Below the pieces are notes generated by a model. The model did no database searches, was not told the DNA's origin, and saw only the letters and a list, made by a program, of their open reading frames with translations. A stretch of DNA of 64,000 nucleotides. It comes from Sphyrna mokarran (Eukaryota). Position 1 is the first letter of the stretch. Each line of letters opens with the position of its first letter. Of the stretch, positions 1 through 62,267 are shown piece after piece. The translations under genes were made by a program, and so were the position numbers. The stretch is taken from NCBI GenBank assembly GCA_024679065.1, contig JAGIQG010000022.1, forward strand, positions 30,070,001 through 30,134,000. Direction: 5' to 3'.

Positions 1-900
1 CAAAGTGGACGGGGTTCTCGCGAAAAAAAAAGGCTCGTCGCGATTTTGAACCTATTCAAGCAACACTTTCCCCTGAAGAAATGCAATCCGTTCTCCAGAT
101 CGGGTCTTACTATTGCAGCACTTGTGGCGACAAGCGATGGGGGCAAGAGTGGAGGGAGTGATTGTGTGTGTGTGTGGACAAAAAAATTACAACCTGACAC
201 CTAATAATTCGTTATTTTGACAACGGGATTGAAAGCACGTTGAAGAAATTCCTCCAGGCTTTAATCACAGTCCTCGCTAATCGCACTGTGACTCTTGCTG
301 GAGAGGCTGTTCAGAGTGTTGGGGTTGGGGGCGGGGTGGGGGACATTGGGAGAGAGAATTGTTTGTAATAAAGATGGAGTTTAAAAGATTTACTATGTGG
401 CGGTCAGGGTTAAGCAGCCAGTACAGCGGTACTTCATCATGCAAGAGGCATTGGAGATTATCTACTCTGCTTGGATGCATTATCATAAAAAGTGATTTAA
501 AACTGATTGATGCAAATGGTTCTCAGTTCTTTTTTATATCATTAATGGGCGCTTTCAGTGGCCAGAGGCAGTGATTAAGACTGTCATTTAGGGGCAGCTC
601 ATTAAAGGCAAGGATGGGAGCTTTTTTGAGGGGGGGCGTTGTGGAAGTGGACTGTGATATTTTAAAGACGAAGCCCCCCCCCCGCACTCCCCTCACTCTA
701 GCCCCCACCCCCGCTGCCACCACTACCCAGTGCCTTACTGTGGGATTAGCATCTGCCAAACAAATTACAGTATGTTTGATGTTTGACATGTTGGTCCTGA
801 TTTTATTTTAATGGAGGAGCTCGGACGAGTTCCTTGGTTCCCCTGCTGAGCTCAGTGTTGGGGAAAGTGTGAAGCGGCGGCAGGGCTGAAGGACGCTGCT
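1..900. promoter_or_regulatory. CpG-enriched, G/C-run-rich repeat-free region, probably promoter-proximal or start of a first intron
   Basis: Visibly more CG dinucleotides than most of the window (tctcgcg, gctcgtcgcg, gaagcggcgg), GC-box-like gggggcgggg near 326-336, no recognisable TE. Function is inference only. Confidence 0.35.
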
Positions 901-2949
901 GATTTTCAATCAATTTTTTAAAAAATTAAAAAAAAATCCTCCTTTCTTTTTGTGGAGGGGAAAGTAAGAAATCTTAATTGTGGACTTCCACCCCAAATGC
1001 CTCTAATGTACAAACTGAGATTATTCTGTTCCAGCATTAAACCTGTTTCTCTGACCTTTTGTATTTTCCAATCAAAGCATATATTACCTTTCTATTAAAT
1101 TATAGGCTTTTATTACACACACTGACATATGTAGATTGCTGGCATCCTGTTCCATGCGCGATAAATCATGTAACTCGACACAGACAGAACAGAGTTAATT
1201 AGTATTTACAGCGAATCAAGTGGATTAGATATTTCAGTGTTATTAAAAGTGGGATTTTTTTTTGGTTGGGGAGGGGAGAGATGCTGTACTTTGTTCAGAC
1301 AATGTGTCCTAAACGAACTGAGTGACTTGCTGAGAAACATAGATTGCCGGGAGTAAGGAGACCATCCATTTCTGCAGACTGGTGTTAATCAGAGAAATGT
1401 AGACTCGTGGTAGACTAGGGCTCTTGTGTTTATTTGTTCAGATATTTACACAAACACATTCATGTCATTTCATCTCGCAGCCAGCGCCTTTACAATGCCG
1501 CATGTTATCAGTTTACCCTCACCGGCAGCTATCGGAGAGGAAACATTTGATACAAGAATGAAGGCAGCGAGAGAAATCTACTGGAAGATCTCAAACCTCT
1601 GTACACAGACACCAAAGCTAGTGGAGTCTTTGAACTGGAAATAACAGCACTCTTCTGAGACCAATTTCATAAAAATTTGAAGCCTGTTTTTATTGGCCAT
1701 TAAAGGAACCTTTATTTTATAAGGGAATGTTGCAGTAATTGCTTTTTACGAAGAGTACTTTGTAACACACATGAGCACTTGAAAGAGGAGCCATTCTGAT
1801 GTTGTCTACCGGGACTCGGTGGCGCAATTAATTTTGCTCCATCTGTTCTTGGGACTTTAAAGGAAAATGGATTTTTTTTTGTTGAGTGTATTTTAATGAA
1901 GAAGATAAAGTGTGGCATTGATGTCCCACAGGCTTGGTGCAGTAAGTTCAAATTATTGCTCAGTCTGTCAGGACGGGCTGCTTCCTCTGAGGCTGACATG
2001 ACAGGCAGCTCAGGTCTGCCCTGAGTGTGCCACTCTAGGTGACAAACAGCCGCTTGGCTTCTGGTGAGGCACTATTAAAATGTCAGTCTCCAATGACGAA
2101 GAGTCCAGGTGGGTCCCTCCTGGACGCAAGATACTTCCAGTCTGAGCTAATGCCTCACTGCAGGACCTTATCAGCGCCGCCCCAGCCGAAAGATCTTGCC
2201 TTCACATCTTATTATCTGTGGGGAGGCGGGGGGGGGGGTGTTAAAACTGCCTTATAGTCCCATTATTCTCGTGCAGTGGTTCAAGGGTAAAGCTTTATTG
2301 CTTCGAAGCTTTGTTCATTCAGCAGCATTGGCTTCTGAGGCAATTCTTTAACCCACAATCATTCATGATGATAAAGGCCGGTTCCTTGACTGCTTTAAAT
2401 CACAGTGTGCTGCCTGTACTTTAATAACTATTTCCAAAGAGCTATTCAGTTTACCACACACACATGTTATTGAGCATGCCACCAGAAGCACAATTTCCCA
2501 ATCCAATCTCACTGTAAATTACTGAACCTTTTTTTTCTCTTGATGAAGGACTCTAACATTTGATGGTCGCTATCCTGGTGATTCAAAAATTATGATCTAA
2601 AACATTTACTGGAAGAATGAGATGTTTTAATATATCTGTTGGAACCATTCAGGAAGCACAATTAAATATTATAAATTAATACATTGTCATATTTAATTCT
2701 TTTATATTTAGAATTATTTCAGCTTTTGTCTTTAAGAAACAATAATCAGAGTATTTGTTCTTGTTTGGTCAGCTGTTAATATTTTCATGAAGGAATGCAC
2801 TTTGTAGATATAAAAACAAAACCCATTTCCACTTGCCAACTCCTGTTACAAAACAGCAGAATTTTTGAAACGCGTTAAAACAATTTAGTAGGCGCAGTGC
2901 TATGGTCAGGGAATTGAATATACATAAGTGAAGATTAGTTGTCTGAAAG

Positions 2950-14939: not shown

Positions 14940-15340
14940 TTCACAATCTTCATGCGCACGCAGTGGTCAAAGCAATTCTTCCCTTTGACTGTTTTTCAAT
15001 AGGTAGCAGAGTAAAACTGCAGGAAAAGTGATGACTGGTATTAACTGGAACTGGCTGTTGTGAGTAAAAATAATAGCCATCTTGGTTGTAGAGACGTTTC
15101 GAGCCTCGAAGGTTTGCGGAGGCAGAGAGTTACATGAAAGTGGCGACAGCATTTTCCACACGATTAACCTGATTTTCATTGAACTGCGAGGCTGCTGAAT
15201 TCAGGCTAGTTTTTGTGTCGCTGACGGGAATAGACTGAGACTAATCCTTTATGTTGCTAGCTGATTAAACACATCTCGACATCAGTGCCAAAAGAAAATG
15301 CTTTCTGTGAGAAGTTGTGAGTGTAATCCTTTCAACTTCA
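14940..15340. promoter_or_regulatory. Candidate conserved non-coding element or enhancer
   Basis: Repeat-free, retains CpGs, YY1-like gccatcttg at about 15076. Conservation not testable here. Confidence 0.3.
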
Positions 15341-15539
15341 TCTTACAAAATCAAAAGCATTTAGAATGATTTTCTTTAAATTGTCACTTTTCACTGACAC
15401 CAGACAAATATAGTTATGTTTGGATATTTTTTATAAAGTATGGTGCAATGGCAGGCACTGTATCAAACTGCACTTTTAACTCCGAGTCACAGTGATTGAT
15501 TTTTAACTGAAACTAAGACTATTCCTCCACGGAAATTGA

Positions 15540-16230
15540 TGTCTGCAGTGGTGTAATTCCACAAGGAACCAGCGCCCTCCAGTATGCTTTCCTCAAAGGG
15601 ACTGAACAATGTTTAAAATAATCAACCACTGGGACCACCTCACAGTTGAACCTGATACTCTGCTTGAACACTTACTCTGTTTCAGCAGATATATGGGAAT
15701 ACCACCAGTTGTCTCCTCTGAGTCGCAATTCATTCTGACTATATTACTGCTCCTTCGCTTGCAATGAGGTCAAAATCCTGGAACGTGCCCCTCAATAGCA
15801 GAATGGATGTACCCACACCACGTGTACTGCTGTGGTTCAAGGGCAGCATATGGGCTCAGTGGTTAACACTGCTGCCTCACTGTGCCAAGAACGTAGGTTC
15901 AATTCTGGCCTTGGGTAACTGTCTGTGTGGCGTTCTGCCCCTGTCTGCCTGGGTTTCCTCCGGATACTCTGGTTTCTTCCACACTCCAAAGATGTGCAGG
16001 GTAGGTGGATTGGCCCCACTGAATTGATCCAAAGAGCAATAGGTTAGGGGGATTATGGGGTAAATACGTGGGATCTCAGGGAAAGGGCAGGAGTGGGCCT
16101 TGTGTGGGATGCTCTGTCAGAGTCAGTGCAGACTCAATGGGCCAAATGTCTCGTTCTGTACTGTACGGACTCTGCGATAAGTCAGCTCACTATTATCATC
16201 TTGAGGGCAGTTATGACAGCTGGCCTTACC
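15540..16230 (+). mobile_element. CR1/L2-group LINE 3' end split by an HE1 SINE
   Basis: caaaatcctggaac...gtggttcaa (to 15840) resumes after the SINE as aagtcagctcac...tcttgagggcagtta. Confidence 0.65.
15841..16178 (+). mobile_element. HE1-type V-SINE
   Basis: tRNA-like head (ggctcagtggtt A-box, ggttcaattc B-box), V-domain tgggtttcctccgg...ccaaagatgtgcagg, CR1/HER1-type tail gtgcagactcaatgggccaaatg. Confidence 0.9.
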
Positions 16231-16354
16231 TATATGAGGTAGCCACTGGATATTGATCTGAACTGGAAATAGGTGGTTGAAACTTCCCTTCTGTAGCTCG
16301 AGGAGAAGTTGTATTGCCCATTATTGCCATCCTGGCAGATATCTGACATGTTAG

Positions 16355-16841
16355 CATCGATCATTGTTCGCAGCAAACTACCCAACCTTCAGGAGAACAG
16401 TGACCACAATACCACACAACCCTGCCACAGCAACCTCTGCAAGACATGCCAGATCATAGACATGGAGGACATCATCAAACGTGAGGATACCATTCACCAG
16501 GTACATGGTACGTACTCTTGCAACTCGGCCAACGTTGTCTACCTAATACGTTGCAAGAAAGGATGTCCTGAAGCATGGTACATCGAGGAGACCATGCAGA
16601 CACTACGACAGCGGATGAATGAGCATCGCTCAACAATCACCAGGCAAAACAGTTCCCTTCCTGTGGGCAAACACTTCAGCAGTTGTGGGCATTCGGCCTC
16701 CGACCTGTGGGTAAATGTTCTTCAAGGGGGCCTTCGTGACACACGACAGCGCAGAGTCGCTGAGCAGAGACTGATAGCCAAGTTCCGCACACATGAGGAC
16801 GTCTTAATAGGGATCTTGGCTTCATGACACACTATCTGTAA
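16355..16841 (+). pseudogene. Penelope GIY-YIG endonuclease C-terminal domain (inactivated)
   Basis: PCHSNLCKTC Cys cluster, SCNSANVVYLIRC...WYIEET...RQRMNEH...VGKHF...E. YIG is changed to YIE, a frameshift near 16801 moves LNRDLGFMTHYL* into another frame, and no RT lies upstream. Confidence 0.9.
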
Positions 16842-17054
16842 CCCCTGTAACTTGCCTGGGTTAGCAAAAAACCTCACTTACTGTGCTGTCTGGAGAAAAT
16901 ACACAATTCTCCAACAATGCTCAGGATTCCCTTCACACACATTGTTAGCCACTTTAACACTTGAATAGCAGGTTCGATGTAAGGATTCGCATTCTAATCA
17001 GCAATCTGTGACTGTCTGTGTTGATATGTGTGCTATTGCAGATCAGAACACTGC

Positions 17055-17093
17055 ATTTGCCTGATGAAGACAGAAAGTCGAAAGCTCGCAAAT
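17055..17093 (+). ncRNA. Minimal type-I hammerhead ribozyme (Penelope pLTR type), core intact
   Basis: Exact parse: stem I ATTTGC 17055-60 / GCAAAT 17088-93; CTGATGA 17061-67; A; stem II GAC-AGAAA-GTC 17069-79; GAAA 17080-83; palindromic AGCT stem III; UH = TC with predicted cleavage after 17087. Confidence 0.85.
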
Positions 17094-17689
17094 TTACTAT
17101 CAAATAAATCGGTTGGATTTAAAATTGGTGTTGCTAGATTCTTACTATGTTAGCATTGACCAGGGAGTGGGCTAACCTGAGTGCATCTTGGTCTGCTCAG
17201 CTCACTTCCATTTCCTGACTAGGCCATTAGGGTAGAGCTCCTGTAGGGAAACGGCAGCTTGTTTTACTTAATATTTTGAGCAGAAAGCAAACTGTATTAA
17301 AACCACAATCAGTTACTGGCTTATATTCTCTCCTGCTATAATATGCTGTTTCACATTTGCCTCGTACCAGATGCCAGCGGAAACAAAGTGTGGCGACAGT
17401 CATGCAAGGATAGATGGCACAGCGGACAATGATTATATTTTTTATGAAATCATCATTTGATATCCCTGAGATAAGAAGCATGCGTTCTGTTTTAGAATGA
17501 TTAGGTTGTAAAGTCCTGAGTGCTGCATCATCCCATGTTTACCACTGTTCATGTAATACCCATGTATGTGCGGGCATTGCAACATTCATTCTTTAATCAG
17601 ATATATATGCTTTGCAGACAACAAGTATGTGTCAGATTAATTTTCTCTGGAACCTTTTGCTGAAACATCCAAGGAATTTCCCCAGGAAT

Positions 17690-18010
17690 ATTTCACCCAA
17701 GTGGCCAGTTGTTCTTGTGAGATCCTTGACAATGAGTACTGAGATGGTGATCAGGGAAGGTGCCATGGTTGACTACAGTGTTGGCATCACCTGATATCTG
17801 TACTGGCACACTTACATCAGTGCTCACTGGATCGCAATCAGAAGCAGGAACCCAACACTTTTTTTTTTCTCCATTCCTTCCCCAGGATTGACACAGCCAA
17901 TTTGCAGCACTCTCATCTATTTCCATAGCTGAGATTAACTCAGCACAGTGTGATAATTGAGTTGAGAACCTTCAGGGACATCATAGCTTAAGCTCTGAAT
18001 CTTAGGGACA
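17690..18010 (-). mobile_element. Old tRNA-derived SINE relic
   Basis: gctgagattaactcagcacag...gagaaccttc resembles a reversed SINE head, with body gcaatcagaagcaggaaccc. A related piece lies at 60520-60610. Confidence 0.4.
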
Positions 18011-18919
18011 TTCAGGCAACTTCTCACTGAGCAAGGTTGGAATGTGAATTCAATGTTGAAAAGCCACTTGGAGCTCTGTTCTTTCAGTATATATTATTGG
18101 ACCTCATGACTCTGGTGCCTGTGTAGGCTCTACTGAGTAAATACTATGTAAAATTTTCAGTTTTTGCAGAATGGAACAGATAATGGAAATGTCGTTTTCT
18201 AAGCAAGCAGCTGAAAATGTCAGGTTACAACTGCTTGATAGTTGCTGTATGTTTATATAGATACACATATATGTATATTTCTATTCAGATGAATGGGCGT
18301 CTTGAGAATAAAAGCAAAGTTGGAGGAAGACTAGTGGCTGTATGTGTTGTGATACTTTTACATTACAAATTTAAGATAATTGAACATACAAATTTGGAAT
18401 GGGAGCCTCTGCCTTTTAATAAGATCAGTGCTGACCTATTTGAATTCCACACTCTCAATTCGTGTTGAGACATAAAACTAAATTTCCACGGAGCTGTGGA
18501 AACTCCATGAATCTTTTAAGAATGGCACATGGGACCTAGATCCAGATGTCCATCCCCATTGCTGGTGGACATCTTTTTCACCGGTAGGACAAAGTGCACA
18601 GGTGTGAATTAGGTATTAGTTGGACCATTTATAAACGCTGCACAGTGGAAGATTTTCTTTGCAAGGACAGCTTAAACCTTCAATGTGTACTTCATGATTT
18701 TATGTTGGAGGAACAAACAGCTCTGAAGGCCTGATTGAATGTAAACCTTTTTTAGAGCACTGCAAGGTAAGGTTTTAAAAACTGAAGATTGCCTTTCAGG
18801 TTGAGAATGGTGGCAGACATCAGCGGGTAGGGAGGTGTGTGGGAAAGGTATTGACTGGAGAAGAGGACCATGTGGGGACCTCTTGATTCTTCCTTGTATC
18901 ATCAGCCAAGTAAAAGGTA

Positions 18920-19929: not shown

Positions 19930-20900
19930 TCCGTAACTGTACATCTTGTCTCTTAATAGGTTTCAATCTGGCTTCTCTTTAACCATATCAATTGACCCTT
20001 AAAAACCATCCGTTGGGATTTGTTCCACATATTATGTACCCTATGGGAGAAATAACTATTTTTTAATCTGTAACCTTACTTAAGAATAATTTAATGTCTG
20101 TGGAACTGCTCTCATTGTCCAAGATAAGTCCCATTACCTCCACTTTGTCAGTATCTTTTATTGTGGAAGATCTGCAGTATGTCCCCTTTCACGTTTTCTC
20201 TGCTGGGGTGAAAATAAATGTAGTCTTTGTTCATAACCAAAAGAGAAAATGCTGGAAAATCTCAGCAGGCCTGGCAGCATCTGTAAGGAGAGAAAAGAGC
20301 TGATATTTTGAGCACATATGAAGCTTTGTTAAAATTTTGACAAAGGGTCATCTGGACTTGAAATGTCAGCTCTTTTCTCTCCTTACCGAGGCTACCAGAC
20401 CTGCTGAGATTTTCCGACATTTTCTCCTTTGGTTTCAGATTCCGGCATCCGCAATCATTTGCTTTTAGCCTTTGTTTGTAACCTAGTCCCTCAAGGCCTG
20501 GAATCATCTTTTACGTTCTTCTCTGATCCGTTTTGAATGAAATAATATCCTTATTGAGGTCGGCTGACCAAACCTGCACACGGTGTTCCAGGATCAGCCT
20601 CAACATTGATTTGTGTACACTGTGAATTGTTTTGATTTGTGTTCAGGGCCCTGCAAACGCATGGCTTAATATCCACTTCATACTGACCAGATGCTTTCAG
20701 GGGCTGATAATTGATCACTTCCAAACGCGTTTCATTTTTGGCATCTGTCAGTGGTGGCTTCACTTAGGACCATTTTCGGTTAAAAGACTGTCTTACATCT
20801 GTTATCCACATTGAAATCCACCTGCCATATCTCTGCTCAGCCATGTAATTAATCCTTATCTGTCCACTGAGCTATTGGGCTTACAGGTTTGGTATCTGTC
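19930..20900 (-). mobile_element. Highly decayed CR1 LINE 3' region, interrupted by a Penelope palindrome
   Basis: Minus-strand MIPGLEGLGYKQRLK and YKSMLRLILEHRVQVWS...KD resemble the CR1 RT C-terminus. Confidence 0.55.
20237..20467. mobile_element. Penelope (family B) pLTR piece arranged as a 2 x 98 bp inverted repeat
   Basis: 20237-20334 is the imperfect reverse complement of 20335-20432. The sequence matches the 3' UTR at 27857-28000, which is attached to a GIY-YIG C-terminus. Confidence 0.8.
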
Positions 20901-31899: not shown

Positions 31900-34800
31900 A
31901 ACCTGTTCTTGACTGCCATGAGATGGCACTCCAGGTTCATGTTCTCCATCAATGATTTGCTTTTGTAAGAGAGAGTCAGACATTCTGGCTACATGACCAG
32001 CTTAACTCACTTGTGACTGTCTCAACGTGGTAGGGATGCTTGGCATGCTTCCTTGGGTGAGCATGTTGCTGTCTGGTGTTCTATCCTGCTATCTGATCTT
32101 GAGAAACTGTTGACAACGGAACAAGTGAAACTGATTGAGATTCTTGGCCTGACACCAGTATACAGTCCATGTGTCACATGCATAGAACAAAATGAGCAGG
32201 ATTGTTGTTCAATTAACTTCGAGTTGATGGATAGACTTATTCCCCGACATTCCGGGACTCTCGTTCAAAATTTATCAAAGGCTTCATTTGGCAATTCTTG
32301 CATTTGTCCTGTCATCAGCATGGACAGCTTGAGGAACAGTGCTACTGAGATAAGTGAGCTTATCCGTTCCCACCATAGACTGAAATTTTGGATTCTAGTT
32401 GGTGGTTTTCTGGAGCAAGTAGTACATAACTCCAGTCTTCTTAATGCAGTTTGTACGTCCAAATATGTTGCATACATTGGAGAACAAGCCCATACTCTGC
32501 ATGTCGATCTCTGAACTGGCAGCAGGTGCAGAGTAATTAGTAAACAGGAAATAGTGAAACACATCCTTGGGGATCTTGGTCTTTTCTGGCATTGTCTGAA
32601 GTTGAGAAGTTTCCCGATTATATGATTTATCATTTCAATGCGTGGATGGAACGTGTGGGAGAGCATGTCTGAGAAAAACTGATGGGGACTGGTGTTAGCT
32701 CAGAGCCCGGTTTTAACTCCATTAGTTAAAGGGTCAGAACACTCACCAAAATCCAGATCACATGAGCATGCCATCATGGAACTGAGGAACCATTTTAATG
32801 CATTTCTCAATCCAGCCGAATTTCTCTGTGACTTTCCACCAGTCCTCACGGCTGACTATGACAAAGGCCTTGGTCGGATCAGCAAATGTGATGTACAGGT
32901 CAACGTTCCGTTCTTGGCATTTTCCTGGAACTATCCTTCTGCAAATACTATATCTGTGATTCCTCCACTTTTTCTGAAATCACGCTAACTTTCTGGTGGC
33001 TGATTCTGATCGCACTACTGCACTAAGCGATTCAGAAGGATTCTGGTGAAGATATTGCTGGCAATAAAGAGGAGTGAATTCCCTCTGATTGTTACAAGAT
33101 TAGCAAGTTTCTCACTGTCTCTGTGCCTGTACTGTGGAGGCATCTTTGCATTCTTTGAGATGATTCTTTGCTCCCACATAGGCTGAGGGAGTTCAGCAAG
33201 CTTCCTGACCAGGCATAGTCTGCCATATCTTATCGACAAGGCAGGAGTTTAATTGGGTTCATCATTTCCATCAAGGGCTGGAGAATCAACAAACGAGCAA
33301 CTGATGGTAATCTGTTGGTGAAGGCTGATTGAGGATGTGATTAAAGTGCTGTGCTCATCTTCCTAGGATTTGGGCTTTGTCTACGTGCAGTGTTGGTCCA
33401 TTGGCATTGAGGATTGGTTTTGAACCAGCAGATTGGGTCGTGTAGACAGATTTGAGAGTATTTAACTTTTAAGTTTCTTTTTTAGTGTCACAAGTTGGCT
33501 TGCATTAACGCTACAATGAAGTCACTGTGAAAATCCCCTAGTCGCCACACATCAACACCTGTTTGGGTACACTGAGGGAGAATTTAGCATGGCCAGTGCA
33601 TCGAGCCAGCACATCTTTTGGCCTGTGGAGGAAACTGGAGCACCCGGAGGAAAGCCACGCAGATACCGAGAGAACATGCGAACGCCACACAGACAGTGAC
33701 CCACGCAGGAATCGAACCTGGGTTCCTGGCTCTGTGACGCAGCTGTGCTAACCACTGTGCCACCATGTCGCCACTGCCACTTGGGGTCTCTTCCAGTCTT
33801 TGATGTCTGCATATGATTGAATTCCATCTGCTTTTTGATTCAGGCAAGTGTGTTGCATCTCTTTAAACTTCCAGAGGATGGTCCTGTTTTAGAATTTATC
33901 CTTGACGTCTTAAGAGGTGTTCATAGTAGGGACGTGCACACTAATGAAAGTAGCTTGCTTGTTGCCCTGCAGGGGGGAGTTTAAGCACCATCAGATGATG
34001 ATTAAAGCTTCTGAGAAGGCAAGTCAACTCACTGTTGAGATCATTCATAACAGCAAAGCCCACAACAGCCTTGTGCCATTCTACTTTTCCCATGGCCACT
34101 CCAAATCTGCAGCGATTTCCCTGAGATTTACTGAGGCTGGTAATCTGGACTTTGTTCTATGCTTGTCCTCTACTAATAAGAGCAGTTCTTCTGTCAAGTG
34201 CCAGTCGTAACCAGTGTCACCTTTTACTTTCTTTGAAATTGCCATATTGATCGCATGCTGGCCACAGAGGTGAAGCAGTTTAGGACTCCTTTTCTAGCCC
34301 CTTCATCCTACTGGGGAAGTGCTCCTTAAAAGTGCGCAGTCACTCAGGGAGTTGCTGAGTTTCATTTCTGTTTTCTTGCAGTGTGAGATGATCGTATGGG
34401 CTGAGGTGTCTGTGGCTACAGATCCCAGTAGATTCATAGCTACAGATCCCAGTAAATCCGCACGCTGTTTGTCGCTCGCAGGTTATCACAGGGCTTATGA
34501 CAAATAGATGTTGGGTGGCATATGATGGACATGACTTGGCCATGAATTGGATGATAGCGAGGAAGAGTTATGCATCATCAGCCTCACTCTGATCCTGAGC
34601 TGTCTTGATGTAGTGGCGAGTCTCATCTGGATGGTTAGAAATAGGTTCCAGATGCAGCAAGTGACCAGAATATCTTCTGTGCCTTGTTGAGCTCTACATG
34701 TTCCACAACATGGTGCTGACCCACCTTCAAGATAGTTAGACCTCCGATTGGTCTCATCTGCCCAGACCACAAGAATTAATCTCAGTATGTCAGGATAGAC

Positions 34801-54559: not shown

Positions 54560-56450
54560 GTGCAAGTACAGTAAACAAGGCCATGGAGAACACATGACAT
54601 CATCATTGTACTGGATGCTTGCTTTAAAGAGCAGTAAAATTGGCAGCTCAACATCCCCTGGATGTAGGCTGTTCCGACATGACAGGGAGAGGGCTGAAAA
54701 GGTGGAGGTGTAATATTGCTAGTTAAAGAATAAACCACAGCTGCGAGGAAGGATGATGTATAAAAAGAATTATCAAATGAGACCAAATTGGTTTAACTCA
54801 GAAATTTAAAAAAGGGGCAGCAACGCTATTCGGAGTGTATTATAGATCTCCAAATTGAGAGGGGGAGGAGCAAATAAATGTAGGCAAAATTCTGAGTGCA
54901 AAATGATAAGCCAGTAAATGTTAGAGACTCCAGCTATTCTAATATCAATAGGGATAGCAATAATGTGAAGGGCACAATATTCTTGAACTGCATTCAAGAG
55001 ATTTTTTTTGTGGCCAGCACGTAACAAGCCCAATGAGAGGGAACGCAATTCTAGATTTATGCCGAAAACTTCCATCCTTGTTCATGGCTGGGACTCTCCT
55101 GTGCCACTGAAAGAGATTGGAGTTATGACTCGAACACCAATTCTCTGTTCCAATTTGAGCGAGCACGGATGGAATGGGAAAATCCCAGCCCTCAGATTTG
55201 GAAAACGAAGCTGGCTAAGTGAATGAAGTAGCAGTAGCGGATTTTCTTGGAGATATTGACCATAATACTATTAGATTTAGCATGATTATAGAAATGCAAT
55301 GGGAGTAAAAGTTTTAAATTGGACAGAAACACGTTTTATGAAGCTGAGAAGTGATCTGGCACAAATGGATTAGTTACAGCTACATCAAGAGAAATCTATG
55401 GCAGACCAATGATAGACAGTCAAAAGTGAGATTCTTGGGGAGCTATATAGACATGTATCCACAAAGAAAAAGGGTGTTGCTGTTCTTGGCTCCTTGGTTA
55501 TCTAGAAGCATACAGGCAAGATAAAGCCACAAAATAATGCTTATGACAGTGACAAAAATGTTAGAAAGCCTTGGAGTATAGAAAACACAGGGCTGAAGGA
55601 AAGTAGGAAAGAGAGGATATGAAAAAATATTGGCAGGTAAAGTCAAAGAAAACCCTAAGGTATTTCACTGGTACATTAAGTGCAAGAGGATAACTAAGGA
55701 AAGGATAGAGCTGATCAAGAATGTGCAAGATATGCGTTGGTGAAGAAGATGTGGGCAGAGTTCTTAAGGAGTACCTCATGTCTGAGGGATGATGTAGCCA
55801 TTCCGAGGAGGAGTGTGAAATATTCGGCACAATAAGCATGATGAGACAGGAAGTAACTGGAGAAACTGATATTGAAGGTGGATATATCACTCGGACCATA
55901 TGGGGTATACCCAGACTGTTAAAGGAAGCCAGGGAGGAAATAGCAGATGCTCTGAGGATCATTTTCCAATCTCCGCTCAGTACTAGGTATAAGTGAGATA
56001 TCAGAGGGTTGGAGGTCTACAACCAATGTACCATCATTAAAAAAATGCACAATGGATAGGCCAAATAATTATAGATCAGTCTGTCTGACTTCAGTGGTGG
56101 GCATGTTATTAGAATCAATTCTGAGAGACAGGGTAAACTGTCACTAAGAAAGGAATGATTTATTAGGGACAGTCATGATGGTTTTGTTAAAGGGAAAGTC
56201 ATGCCATTACTAACTTAATTACATTCTTTTGAGGCATTAATAAGGAGGATTGATGATGGATGTTGTCTCCATGGATGCTAGTAAGGCATTTGACAAGATC
56301 ACACAGAACAGACTGATCAGAGAAGTAAAAGCCCATGGGATACAAGTGAAGATGGCGAATTGGATCCATAATTGTCTCAATGAGAGGAAAGAGAGGCTCA
56401 TGATCAATGGATGTTTTGATGAATGGAAAGTGGATTTCAGTGGTATTCAA
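54560..56450 (+). mobile_element. Decayed CR1 LINE ORF2 (endonuclease to RT N-terminus)
   Basis: GVYYRSP-like endonuclease motif near 54832, NYRSVCLTSVVG near 56067, and DVVSMDASKAFDKI...WIHNCLNERKERLMING. Confidence 0.88.
55085..55191. mobile_element. PIF/Harbinger-like MITE nested in CR1
   Basis: TIRs tggctgggactctcc / ggaaaatcccagccc, flanked on both sides by TCA (55082-84 and 55192-94). Confidence 0.6.
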
Positions 56451-56499
56451 TGTTATATTGCTACACCAGTCAATTGTGCATGTAATTGAACACTGCTCA

Positions 56500-58193: not shown

Positions 58194-58242
58194 GTTTCGG
58201 ATGCCACTTCAGAGAAACTTTTCAATACTACCACGAGTAAAG
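58194..58242 (+). other. Candidate 49-nt internal exon of the host gene (5' UTR or coding)
   Basis: Branch-point-like ctaat at 58157, long pyrimidine tract ending ctctcctctag|G, donor AAG|gtaggc. Two frames are open (VSDATSEKLFNTTTSK and FRMPLQRNFSILPRVK). Confidence 0.6.
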
Positions 58243-61848: not shown

Positions 61849-62267
61849 TCATAGAATTCTACAGGCAGAAGAAGGCCATTCAGCCCATCGAGACTGCACT
61901 GACTACAATCCACTCAGATCCTATCCCCGTAACCCCATGTATTTACCCTAGCTAATCCCCCCAATACTAAGGGACAATTCAGCATGGCCGATCACCTAAC
62001 CCACACATCTTTGGACTGGGAGTAGAACGATGTGGAGATGCCACAACTCTTCACTCATTTGAAGAAGGAGTGACAGTCCAAAAGCTTGTGCCACAAAATA
62101 AACCTGTTGGACTTTAACCTGGTGTTGTTATTGTGGGAGGAAACCAGAGCATCCAGAGGAAACCCATGCAGACACAGGGAGAAGGTGCAAACTCCAATCA
62201 GACAGTGGCCCAAACCAGGAACTGAACACGGGTCCTTGGCGCTTTGATGCTAACCACTGTGCTGCCC
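61849..62267 (-). mobile_element. HE1-type V-SINE interrupted by a Penelope fragment
   Basis: The SINE runs to catctttggact (62017) and resumes at tgtgggaggaaacc (62132). Confidence 0.9.
62022..62130 (+). mobile_element. Penelope family A pLTR fragment with decayed hammerhead
   Basis: catttgaagaaggagtgacagtccaaaagcttgtg...aaataaacctgttggactttaacctggtgttg, homologous to 17055-17135. Confidence 0.8.

Follow-up and report, generated by a model that had tools for sequence, protein, structure and literature searches.

An intact hammerhead ribozyme motif lies in a transposon remnant inside an intron of an AUTS2-family gene of the shark Sphyrna mokarran, in sense orientation to the host transcript. 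The question that this locus raises is whether the motif is merely carried along, cuts the host pre-mRNA by accident or has been taken into service by the host. The window, i.e. the whole stretch of DNA that was analysed, comprises 64,000 nucleotides (positions 30,070,001-30,134,000 of the contig), and the features on which the answer rests are the following:

16348..16357, plus strand, left copy of a 10-bp target-site duplication
16359..17146, plus strand, 5'-truncated Penelope-like element (PLE), the 3' 788 bp of a ~3.0-kb unit
16359..16841, plus strand, C-terminal GIY-YIG endonuclease coding remnant (Pfam GIY-YIG match weak, E 0.023, below cut-off)
16842..17146, plus strand, non-coding 3' pLTR segment holding the hammerhead and the family tail
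17055..17093, plus strand, minimal type-I hammerhead motif, core and stems read directly from the sequence
17147..17156, plus strand, right copy of the 10-bp target-site duplication
58194..58242, plus strand, AUTS2-family coding exon of 49 nt, VSDATSEKLFNTTTSK, with AG/GT borders, which fixes the host strand
62041..62128, plus strand, stub of an older sister PLE family within a short interspersed repeat, hammerhead C3 and G12 changed

In the motif, AUUUGC (17055-17060) and GCAAAU (17088-17093) form a stem I of six Watson-Crick pairs, the CUGAUGA box occupies 17061-17067, and GAC (17069-17071) pairs with GUC (17077-17079) in a 3-bp stem II closed by the loop AGAAA; GAAA (17080-17083), the palindromic AGCU (17083-17086) and the UC with C17 at 17087 complete it, and cleavage is predicted after C17087. 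Every position of the type-I core is present (C3-U4-G5-A6-N7-G8-A9, G12-A13-A14, A15.1-U16.1 and H17). Direct reading thus bears out the preliminary description, which had listed all core nucleotides, a 6-bp stem I, a 3-bp stem II and a palindromic AGCU, and had left unmentioned an unpaired additional A at 17068, between A9 and G10.1. Its assignment of the motif to the minimal type-I hammerheads of PLEs holds as well. An additional nucleotide at the 9/10.1 place is usual for PLE minimal hammerheads (PMC4209133; this and the other articles are cited from part of their text). The motif further shares with the metazoan pLTR hammerheads of that article (Cervera and De la Pena 2014) the type-I topology, the full core, G10.1-C11.1, a palindromic 15.1-16.1 region with a 2-nt insertion, occurrence in both pLTRs, mostly as dispersed single truncated copies, and many variants per genome, and differs from the S. 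mansoni families described there in its stems (stem II of 3 bp and stem I of 6 bp here, against 7-8 and 4-5 bp, respectively). Sharks are not named in the cited part of its main text.

A relaxed hammerhead descriptor matched the 64-kb window only once, at 17055-17093, and had no match in 200 first-order Markov controls (64 kb each, both strands). The 11 matches that an Rfam covariance search returned at E<=10 include no hammerhead family, a likely consequence of the missing stem III, and the folding z-score of the region was unremarkable (-1.14), so that support for the hammerhead comes from the core-plus-stem pattern and not from stability. Although these two results are those to be expected of a chance match to a loose descriptor, we give that explanation practically no weight, given the empty controls, the constant position of the hammerhead in both pLTRs of full-length elements and the maintenance of stem pairing over 71 distinct intact variants. 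Among these variants, which were preselected for pairing and are counted as sequences and not as events, pairing is compensated at II.2 (A-U in 47, G-U in 18, G-C in 6) and II.3 (C-G in 67, A-U in 4). The palindromic stem III region is present, with the middle GC of AGCU found in 67 of the 71.

The element that carries the motif is incomplete. The insertion has clean ends and holds neither reverse transcriptase (RT) nor an upstream pLTR; other copies of the family run on upstream into RT sequence, which together with the 10-bp duplication indicates a 5'-truncated insertion that was never able to transpose. The YIG to YIE change and the frameshift reported earlier for the endonuclease are both real: the former is a G>A at 16586, where 25 of 26 copies covering the site have G, and the latter reflects one base missing at 16801-16802, close to the endonuclease end. 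Both are decay after insertion. Full-length relatives are pLTR-ORF-pLTR units of ~3.0 kb with one hammerhead per pLTR, and in most of 37 ORF-start loci the hammerheads lie ~3.0 kb apart on either side of the ORF. Family copies have a single ORF with RT and, at the C terminus, a GIY-YIG endonuclease, and of this ORF only the endonuclease end survives in the window copy; one of the family copies (L063) matches RVT_1 (E 8e-10) and reads on into the endonuclease matched by the window copy, and open frames of 882-893 codons are found in two of five full-length copies checked. Direct pLTRs with hammerheads, a tail, two preferred ends and inverted pairs, all hallmarks of PLEs, are present. In the order of RT and GIY-YIG endonuclease, the tandem pLTR-ORF-pLTR units and the two preferred 3' ends ('tail') the family resembles Poseidon_Ac of Anolis carolinensis (PMC11167929), whose ORF starts within the hammerhead, whereas the start codon of the shark family lies ~100 nt beyond the cleavage site.

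Other repeats were observed in the window. A frame at 32017-32699 has a YVAYIG motif, like a GIY-YIG endonuclease remnant of another element, and no Pfam match; a reverse transcriptase fragment at 56244-56486 (RVT_1, E 8.5e-6) is likely a LINE remnant; and 20235-20434 is a perfectly abutting inverted repeat with 100-nt arms, 84% complementary, whose weak Rfam MIR529 match falls far short of the cut-off and which is probably what remains of a small DNA transposon. A SINE-like dispersed repeat of about 300-400 nt occurs at 15840-16160 and in at least 12 other places on both strands, and the 62041 stub is located inside one of its copies.

The copy number and age of the subfamily bear on why the motif is intact. 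The element aligns to 29 other loci at 91-97%, and a 151-nt query (17000-17150) gave 664 candidates, the best 39 others of the 40 scored being 97-99% identical. The intact 33-nt hammerhead pattern has 171 exact genomic matches, window included, and 7 of the 100 matches listed (of 171), the window again included, are identical to the window's version; the tail (17101-17134) has 6,593 exact matches. Against the majority sequence of 45 closely similar copies, the window copy shows 17 substitutions in 788 nt, 8 of them at CpG, and is about 2% diverged; as the 45 were chosen by likeness to 17000-17150, rates were taken from positions before 17000 only. Within the motif the sole difference from the subfamily majority is a CpG transition (C>U) at 17065, the free N7. 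The neutral probability of no change at the 33 critical positions is 0.28-0.31, and in a tail-selected sample of 99 copies the intact descriptor matches 23, or ~0.29 of the 78 that span the motif. Extrapolated from this sample, the 6,593 copies with an exact tail should alone hold ~1,500 intact motifs. Harmless N7 C>U changes (17 of the 100 listed, ~29 of 171) are as common in the window's subfamily as G8>A changes (31), which break the core, and this fits the prediction of neutral CpG decay; decay here is symmetric and neutral. The preliminary description had offered selection or 'simply a young subfamily' as reasons for full pairing, and the second is right: the copy is little diverged and majority-like, and survival of its motif by chance is not a rare outcome (~0.3).

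The same applies to the contrast drawn earlier with 62056-62090, described as a homologous copy with other stems I and II and a lost core. Its stems are indeed different and its core is damaged at C3 and G12, but the core is not wholly lost, and the sequence belongs to a sister family (2,200 candidates, 89-94% identical) and not to the same family. Intact members of this older family have other but pairing stems and the same core, and the difference between the motifs at 17055 and 62056 is one of family age, not of selection.

The host gene was identified from 220 kb of genome flanking the window. AUTS2-family exons lie on the plus strand 75-141 kb past the window end, and the gene extends on the window's contig from a first coding exon at 29,162,478 to the end of the last at 30,275,501, a span within which the window falls. 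With one plus-strand exon of the gene in the window itself, the earlier claim that the motif is sense to the host transcript stands. Several short exons are closer to proteins named AUTS2 (81-94% to P0063) than to the shark paralog P0028, which matches a different gene (on another contig, C772) at 92%; from these similarities the host gene is probably AUTS2 itself. We take the motif to lie in its intron 5 by human numbering. No host domain turned up in a Pfam search that covered all 280 plus-strand ORFs 45 aa or longer and 20 of the 349 on the minus strand. A CpG-richer stretch spans the upstream flank (L132:9000-10000) and window positions 1-1000, with a GTGAGT donor-like site on the plus strand ~470 nt before the window start; it may be an alternative first exon within the AUTS2 intron.

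At the orthologous site, 15000-18500 was compared with contigs from four runs of related organisms. In three of the runs (X2, X7 and X8) the site is empty: a single contig carries both flanks, separated by 27, 24 and 27 letters, respectively, versus about 825 with the element, and these letters match 17157/17160-17184, leaving no room for the element. In the fourth (X3) the contig match begins at 17158, and the 91 letters before it are unplaced in the rows shown, consistent with an empty site. The flanks differ by 3-6% between the window and the related organisms; many of the differences from the window are common to the four runs, whose lineages may not be independent. On these alignments the insertion is younger than the split from the related organisms.

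The empty site weighs heavily against the idea that the motif has been exapted as an intronic ribozyme regulating AUTS2 processing, the more so as the flanks are so little diverged. The idea draws on the sense orientation of the motif inside an intron of a developmental gene, on its one change having fallen at a tolerated position, and on precedent: the domesticated hammerheads of RECK, CTCL and DTNB are likewise of type I and sense in an intron of the host gene (PMC6155905). Those hammerheads are conserved across amniotes (PMC6155905), unlike the shark motif, which resides in a young, still recognisable transposon and is absent from close relatives. Furthermore, it has the sequence of the subfamily majority except at N7, its subfamily decays symmetrically at the neutral rate, its survival requires only ordinary luck, and its stem III is not stable. 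Conserved intronic hammerheads also have loop contacts, which the 17055 motif probably lacks. All three observations that the preliminary description had itself named as refuting exaptation were made, namely a majority-like motif, neutral decay and absence at the orthologous site (in three of four related organisms). Selection, as proposed in that description, is thus not supported, and we consider exaptation highly improbable, the neutrality comparison being one that is blind to recent lineage-specific selection.

Whether the lone copy cuts is a separate matter. With stem III cut down to AGCU, the active fold would need two copies, each core cleaving the other strand. In full-length elements the two hammerheads ~3 kb apart would pair via AGCU, or the element's protein would fold them, and cleavage would follow; the copy at 17055 would have neither a partner nor a protein of its own, and the pre-mRNA is predicted to stay uncut. 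Cleavage of hammerheads as dimers was reportedly described by Lunse et al. in 2017. In folds predicted with ViennaRNA, which ignores tertiary contacts of the core, stems I and II form in the isolated motif, the mid stem I pair probability is 0.002-0.44 with 30-200 nt of flanks, and the dimer (-12.3 kcal/mol) gains no energy over two monomers (2 x -6.3). No second intact motif was found on either strand in the 284 kb scanned, a scan outside which lie ~840 kb of the gene upstream. About 55 kb beyond the end of the window (window-relative 119,230-119,270), the plus strand of the gene holds an older-family hammerhead with a complete core, a mismatched first stem I pair and stem I arms unlike those of the 17055 motif. 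Published activities are low: a lone minimal hammerhead of S. mansoni showed no cleavage and its dimers little (PMC4209133), the same being stated for dimers of such hammerheads in PMC6765202, and the Anolis PLE hammerhead was cleaved only with the element's protein, while RNA-seq reads had no starts or ends at its site (cited part of PMC11167929). Since the lone copy has no partner nearby, cutting of the pre-mRNA is unlikely, and we infer little or no cleavage.

Some cleavage is nevertheless possible given an intact core and stems on the transcribed strand, and the motif could be an accidental, unselected cutter of a small share of nascent AUTS2 transcripts, acting with family RNA or protein in trans, e.g. 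in the germline. Transcripts of the 170 other exact copies may pair with it in trans, as at least that many copies have matching stem I arms and AGCU, and protein from an intact family member may act on it in trans, as open frames survive in some full-length copies and protein-assisted cleavage is known for a related PLE (PMC11167929). Against such cutting stand the absence of an intact partner within 284 kb, a stem I largely unformed in the flanked predicted folds, the weak activity even of dimers (PMC4209133) and family 5' junctions that do not pile up at the site (see below). We regard low-level cutting as improbable, less so than exaptation. By contrast, the reading of the motif as the usual 3' pLTR hammerhead of a PLE family that is young and has many copies, likely an inactive or nearly inactive passenger kept intact by youth and chance, has in our estimate a probability of about 0.88. 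On this passenger reading, a truncated PLE would have carried the hammerhead into the intron, arriving without RT and unable to transpose, and would have decayed neutrally since; the N7 C>U would have fallen on the free position of the core and abolished the CpG by which G8 is lost in other copies. The locus is a real but ordinary representative of a known class. It serves as an example of how an intact transposon passenger can be separated from an exapted ribozyme by comparison with the family majority, by counts of mirror CpG changes and by the empty site.

Of greater importance than the locus itself is the family-level behavior of G8. In a sister subfamily with a 5-bp stem II, exact counts were 256 intact, 713 G8>A and 32 with the mirror CpG change C7>U; the G8>A variant, with at least 713 exact copies, is 22 times as frequent as its mirror and nearly three times as frequent as the intact sister. 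A general strand bias as the source of this excess was rejected, as other CpGs decay evenly on both strands (C>T versus G>A 16:20 and 40:43). A linked base at 17137 is common to each of the 21 A8 copies examined and occurs in only 13 of 26 G8 copies, and the A8 copies are diverged by 2.2%; together with the even CpG decay this indicates that a template with the C3-A8 mismatch was amplified. A hammerhead with this mismatch is predicted to be inactive, and a core-broken template was likely amplified to 713 exact copies. A8 also exceeds U7 in the other stem types of the tail-selected sample (12 versus 3).

Analysis of 5' junctions at ORF-start loci (70 examined of 259 matches, 67 with an anchored junction) revealed that 47 of the 67 extend upstream across the cleavage site, 19 begin downstream and one lies within 2 nt of it, although some may be tandem neighbours or earlier targets and not one cDNA. 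That full-length 5' ends mark the cleavage site was rejected on this count. Fifteen of the 67 fall inside the ribozyme, at the equivalent of 17059-17080, perhaps because RT stalled or switched templates at stem II. It is likely that RNA was copied uncut and even with a broken core. The upstream hammerheads of ORF-start copies have G8 in 35 of 35 readable cases, with C, G, U or A at N7, which frequently matches between the two pLTRs of one element; the 35 of 35 is weak alone, because 19 CpG sites are expected to show only about one change. Downstream, G8 is found in 26 of 27 readable hammerheads, one further A8 was seen besides, and the A8-subfamily type is in none of the 27 readable 3' cores of this sample, which was chosen by start-codon pattern and upstream cover.

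A bolder combination, namely that the copied RNA is uncut and that loss of the hammerhead boosts copying in this shark family, is doubtful and offered tentatively. If true, the ribozyme would be a brake or a processing step of masters only, and masters with a dead core would give rise to short-lived bursts. The pLTR hammerhead of Poseidon_Ac is dispensable for insertion in vitro, hammerhead mutants having still inserted (PMC11167929), and the genomic counts lend this insertion without cleavage support of an in vivo type. Whether cleavage is needed could be tested on the natural pair of the G8 and A8 subfamilies. Our literature search, supplements lying outside it, turned up neither an amplified PLE hammerhead with a broken core nor PLE hammerheads from sharks.

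Two further observations concern loci of the family. A short tandem array with a period of ~155 nt at C749:36342602-36343849 holds the family's ORF start and includes a strand switch. A 467-codon exon at L066:1313-2713, presumably arylsulfatase-like, has two family copies in inverted arrangement ~1.6 kb away.
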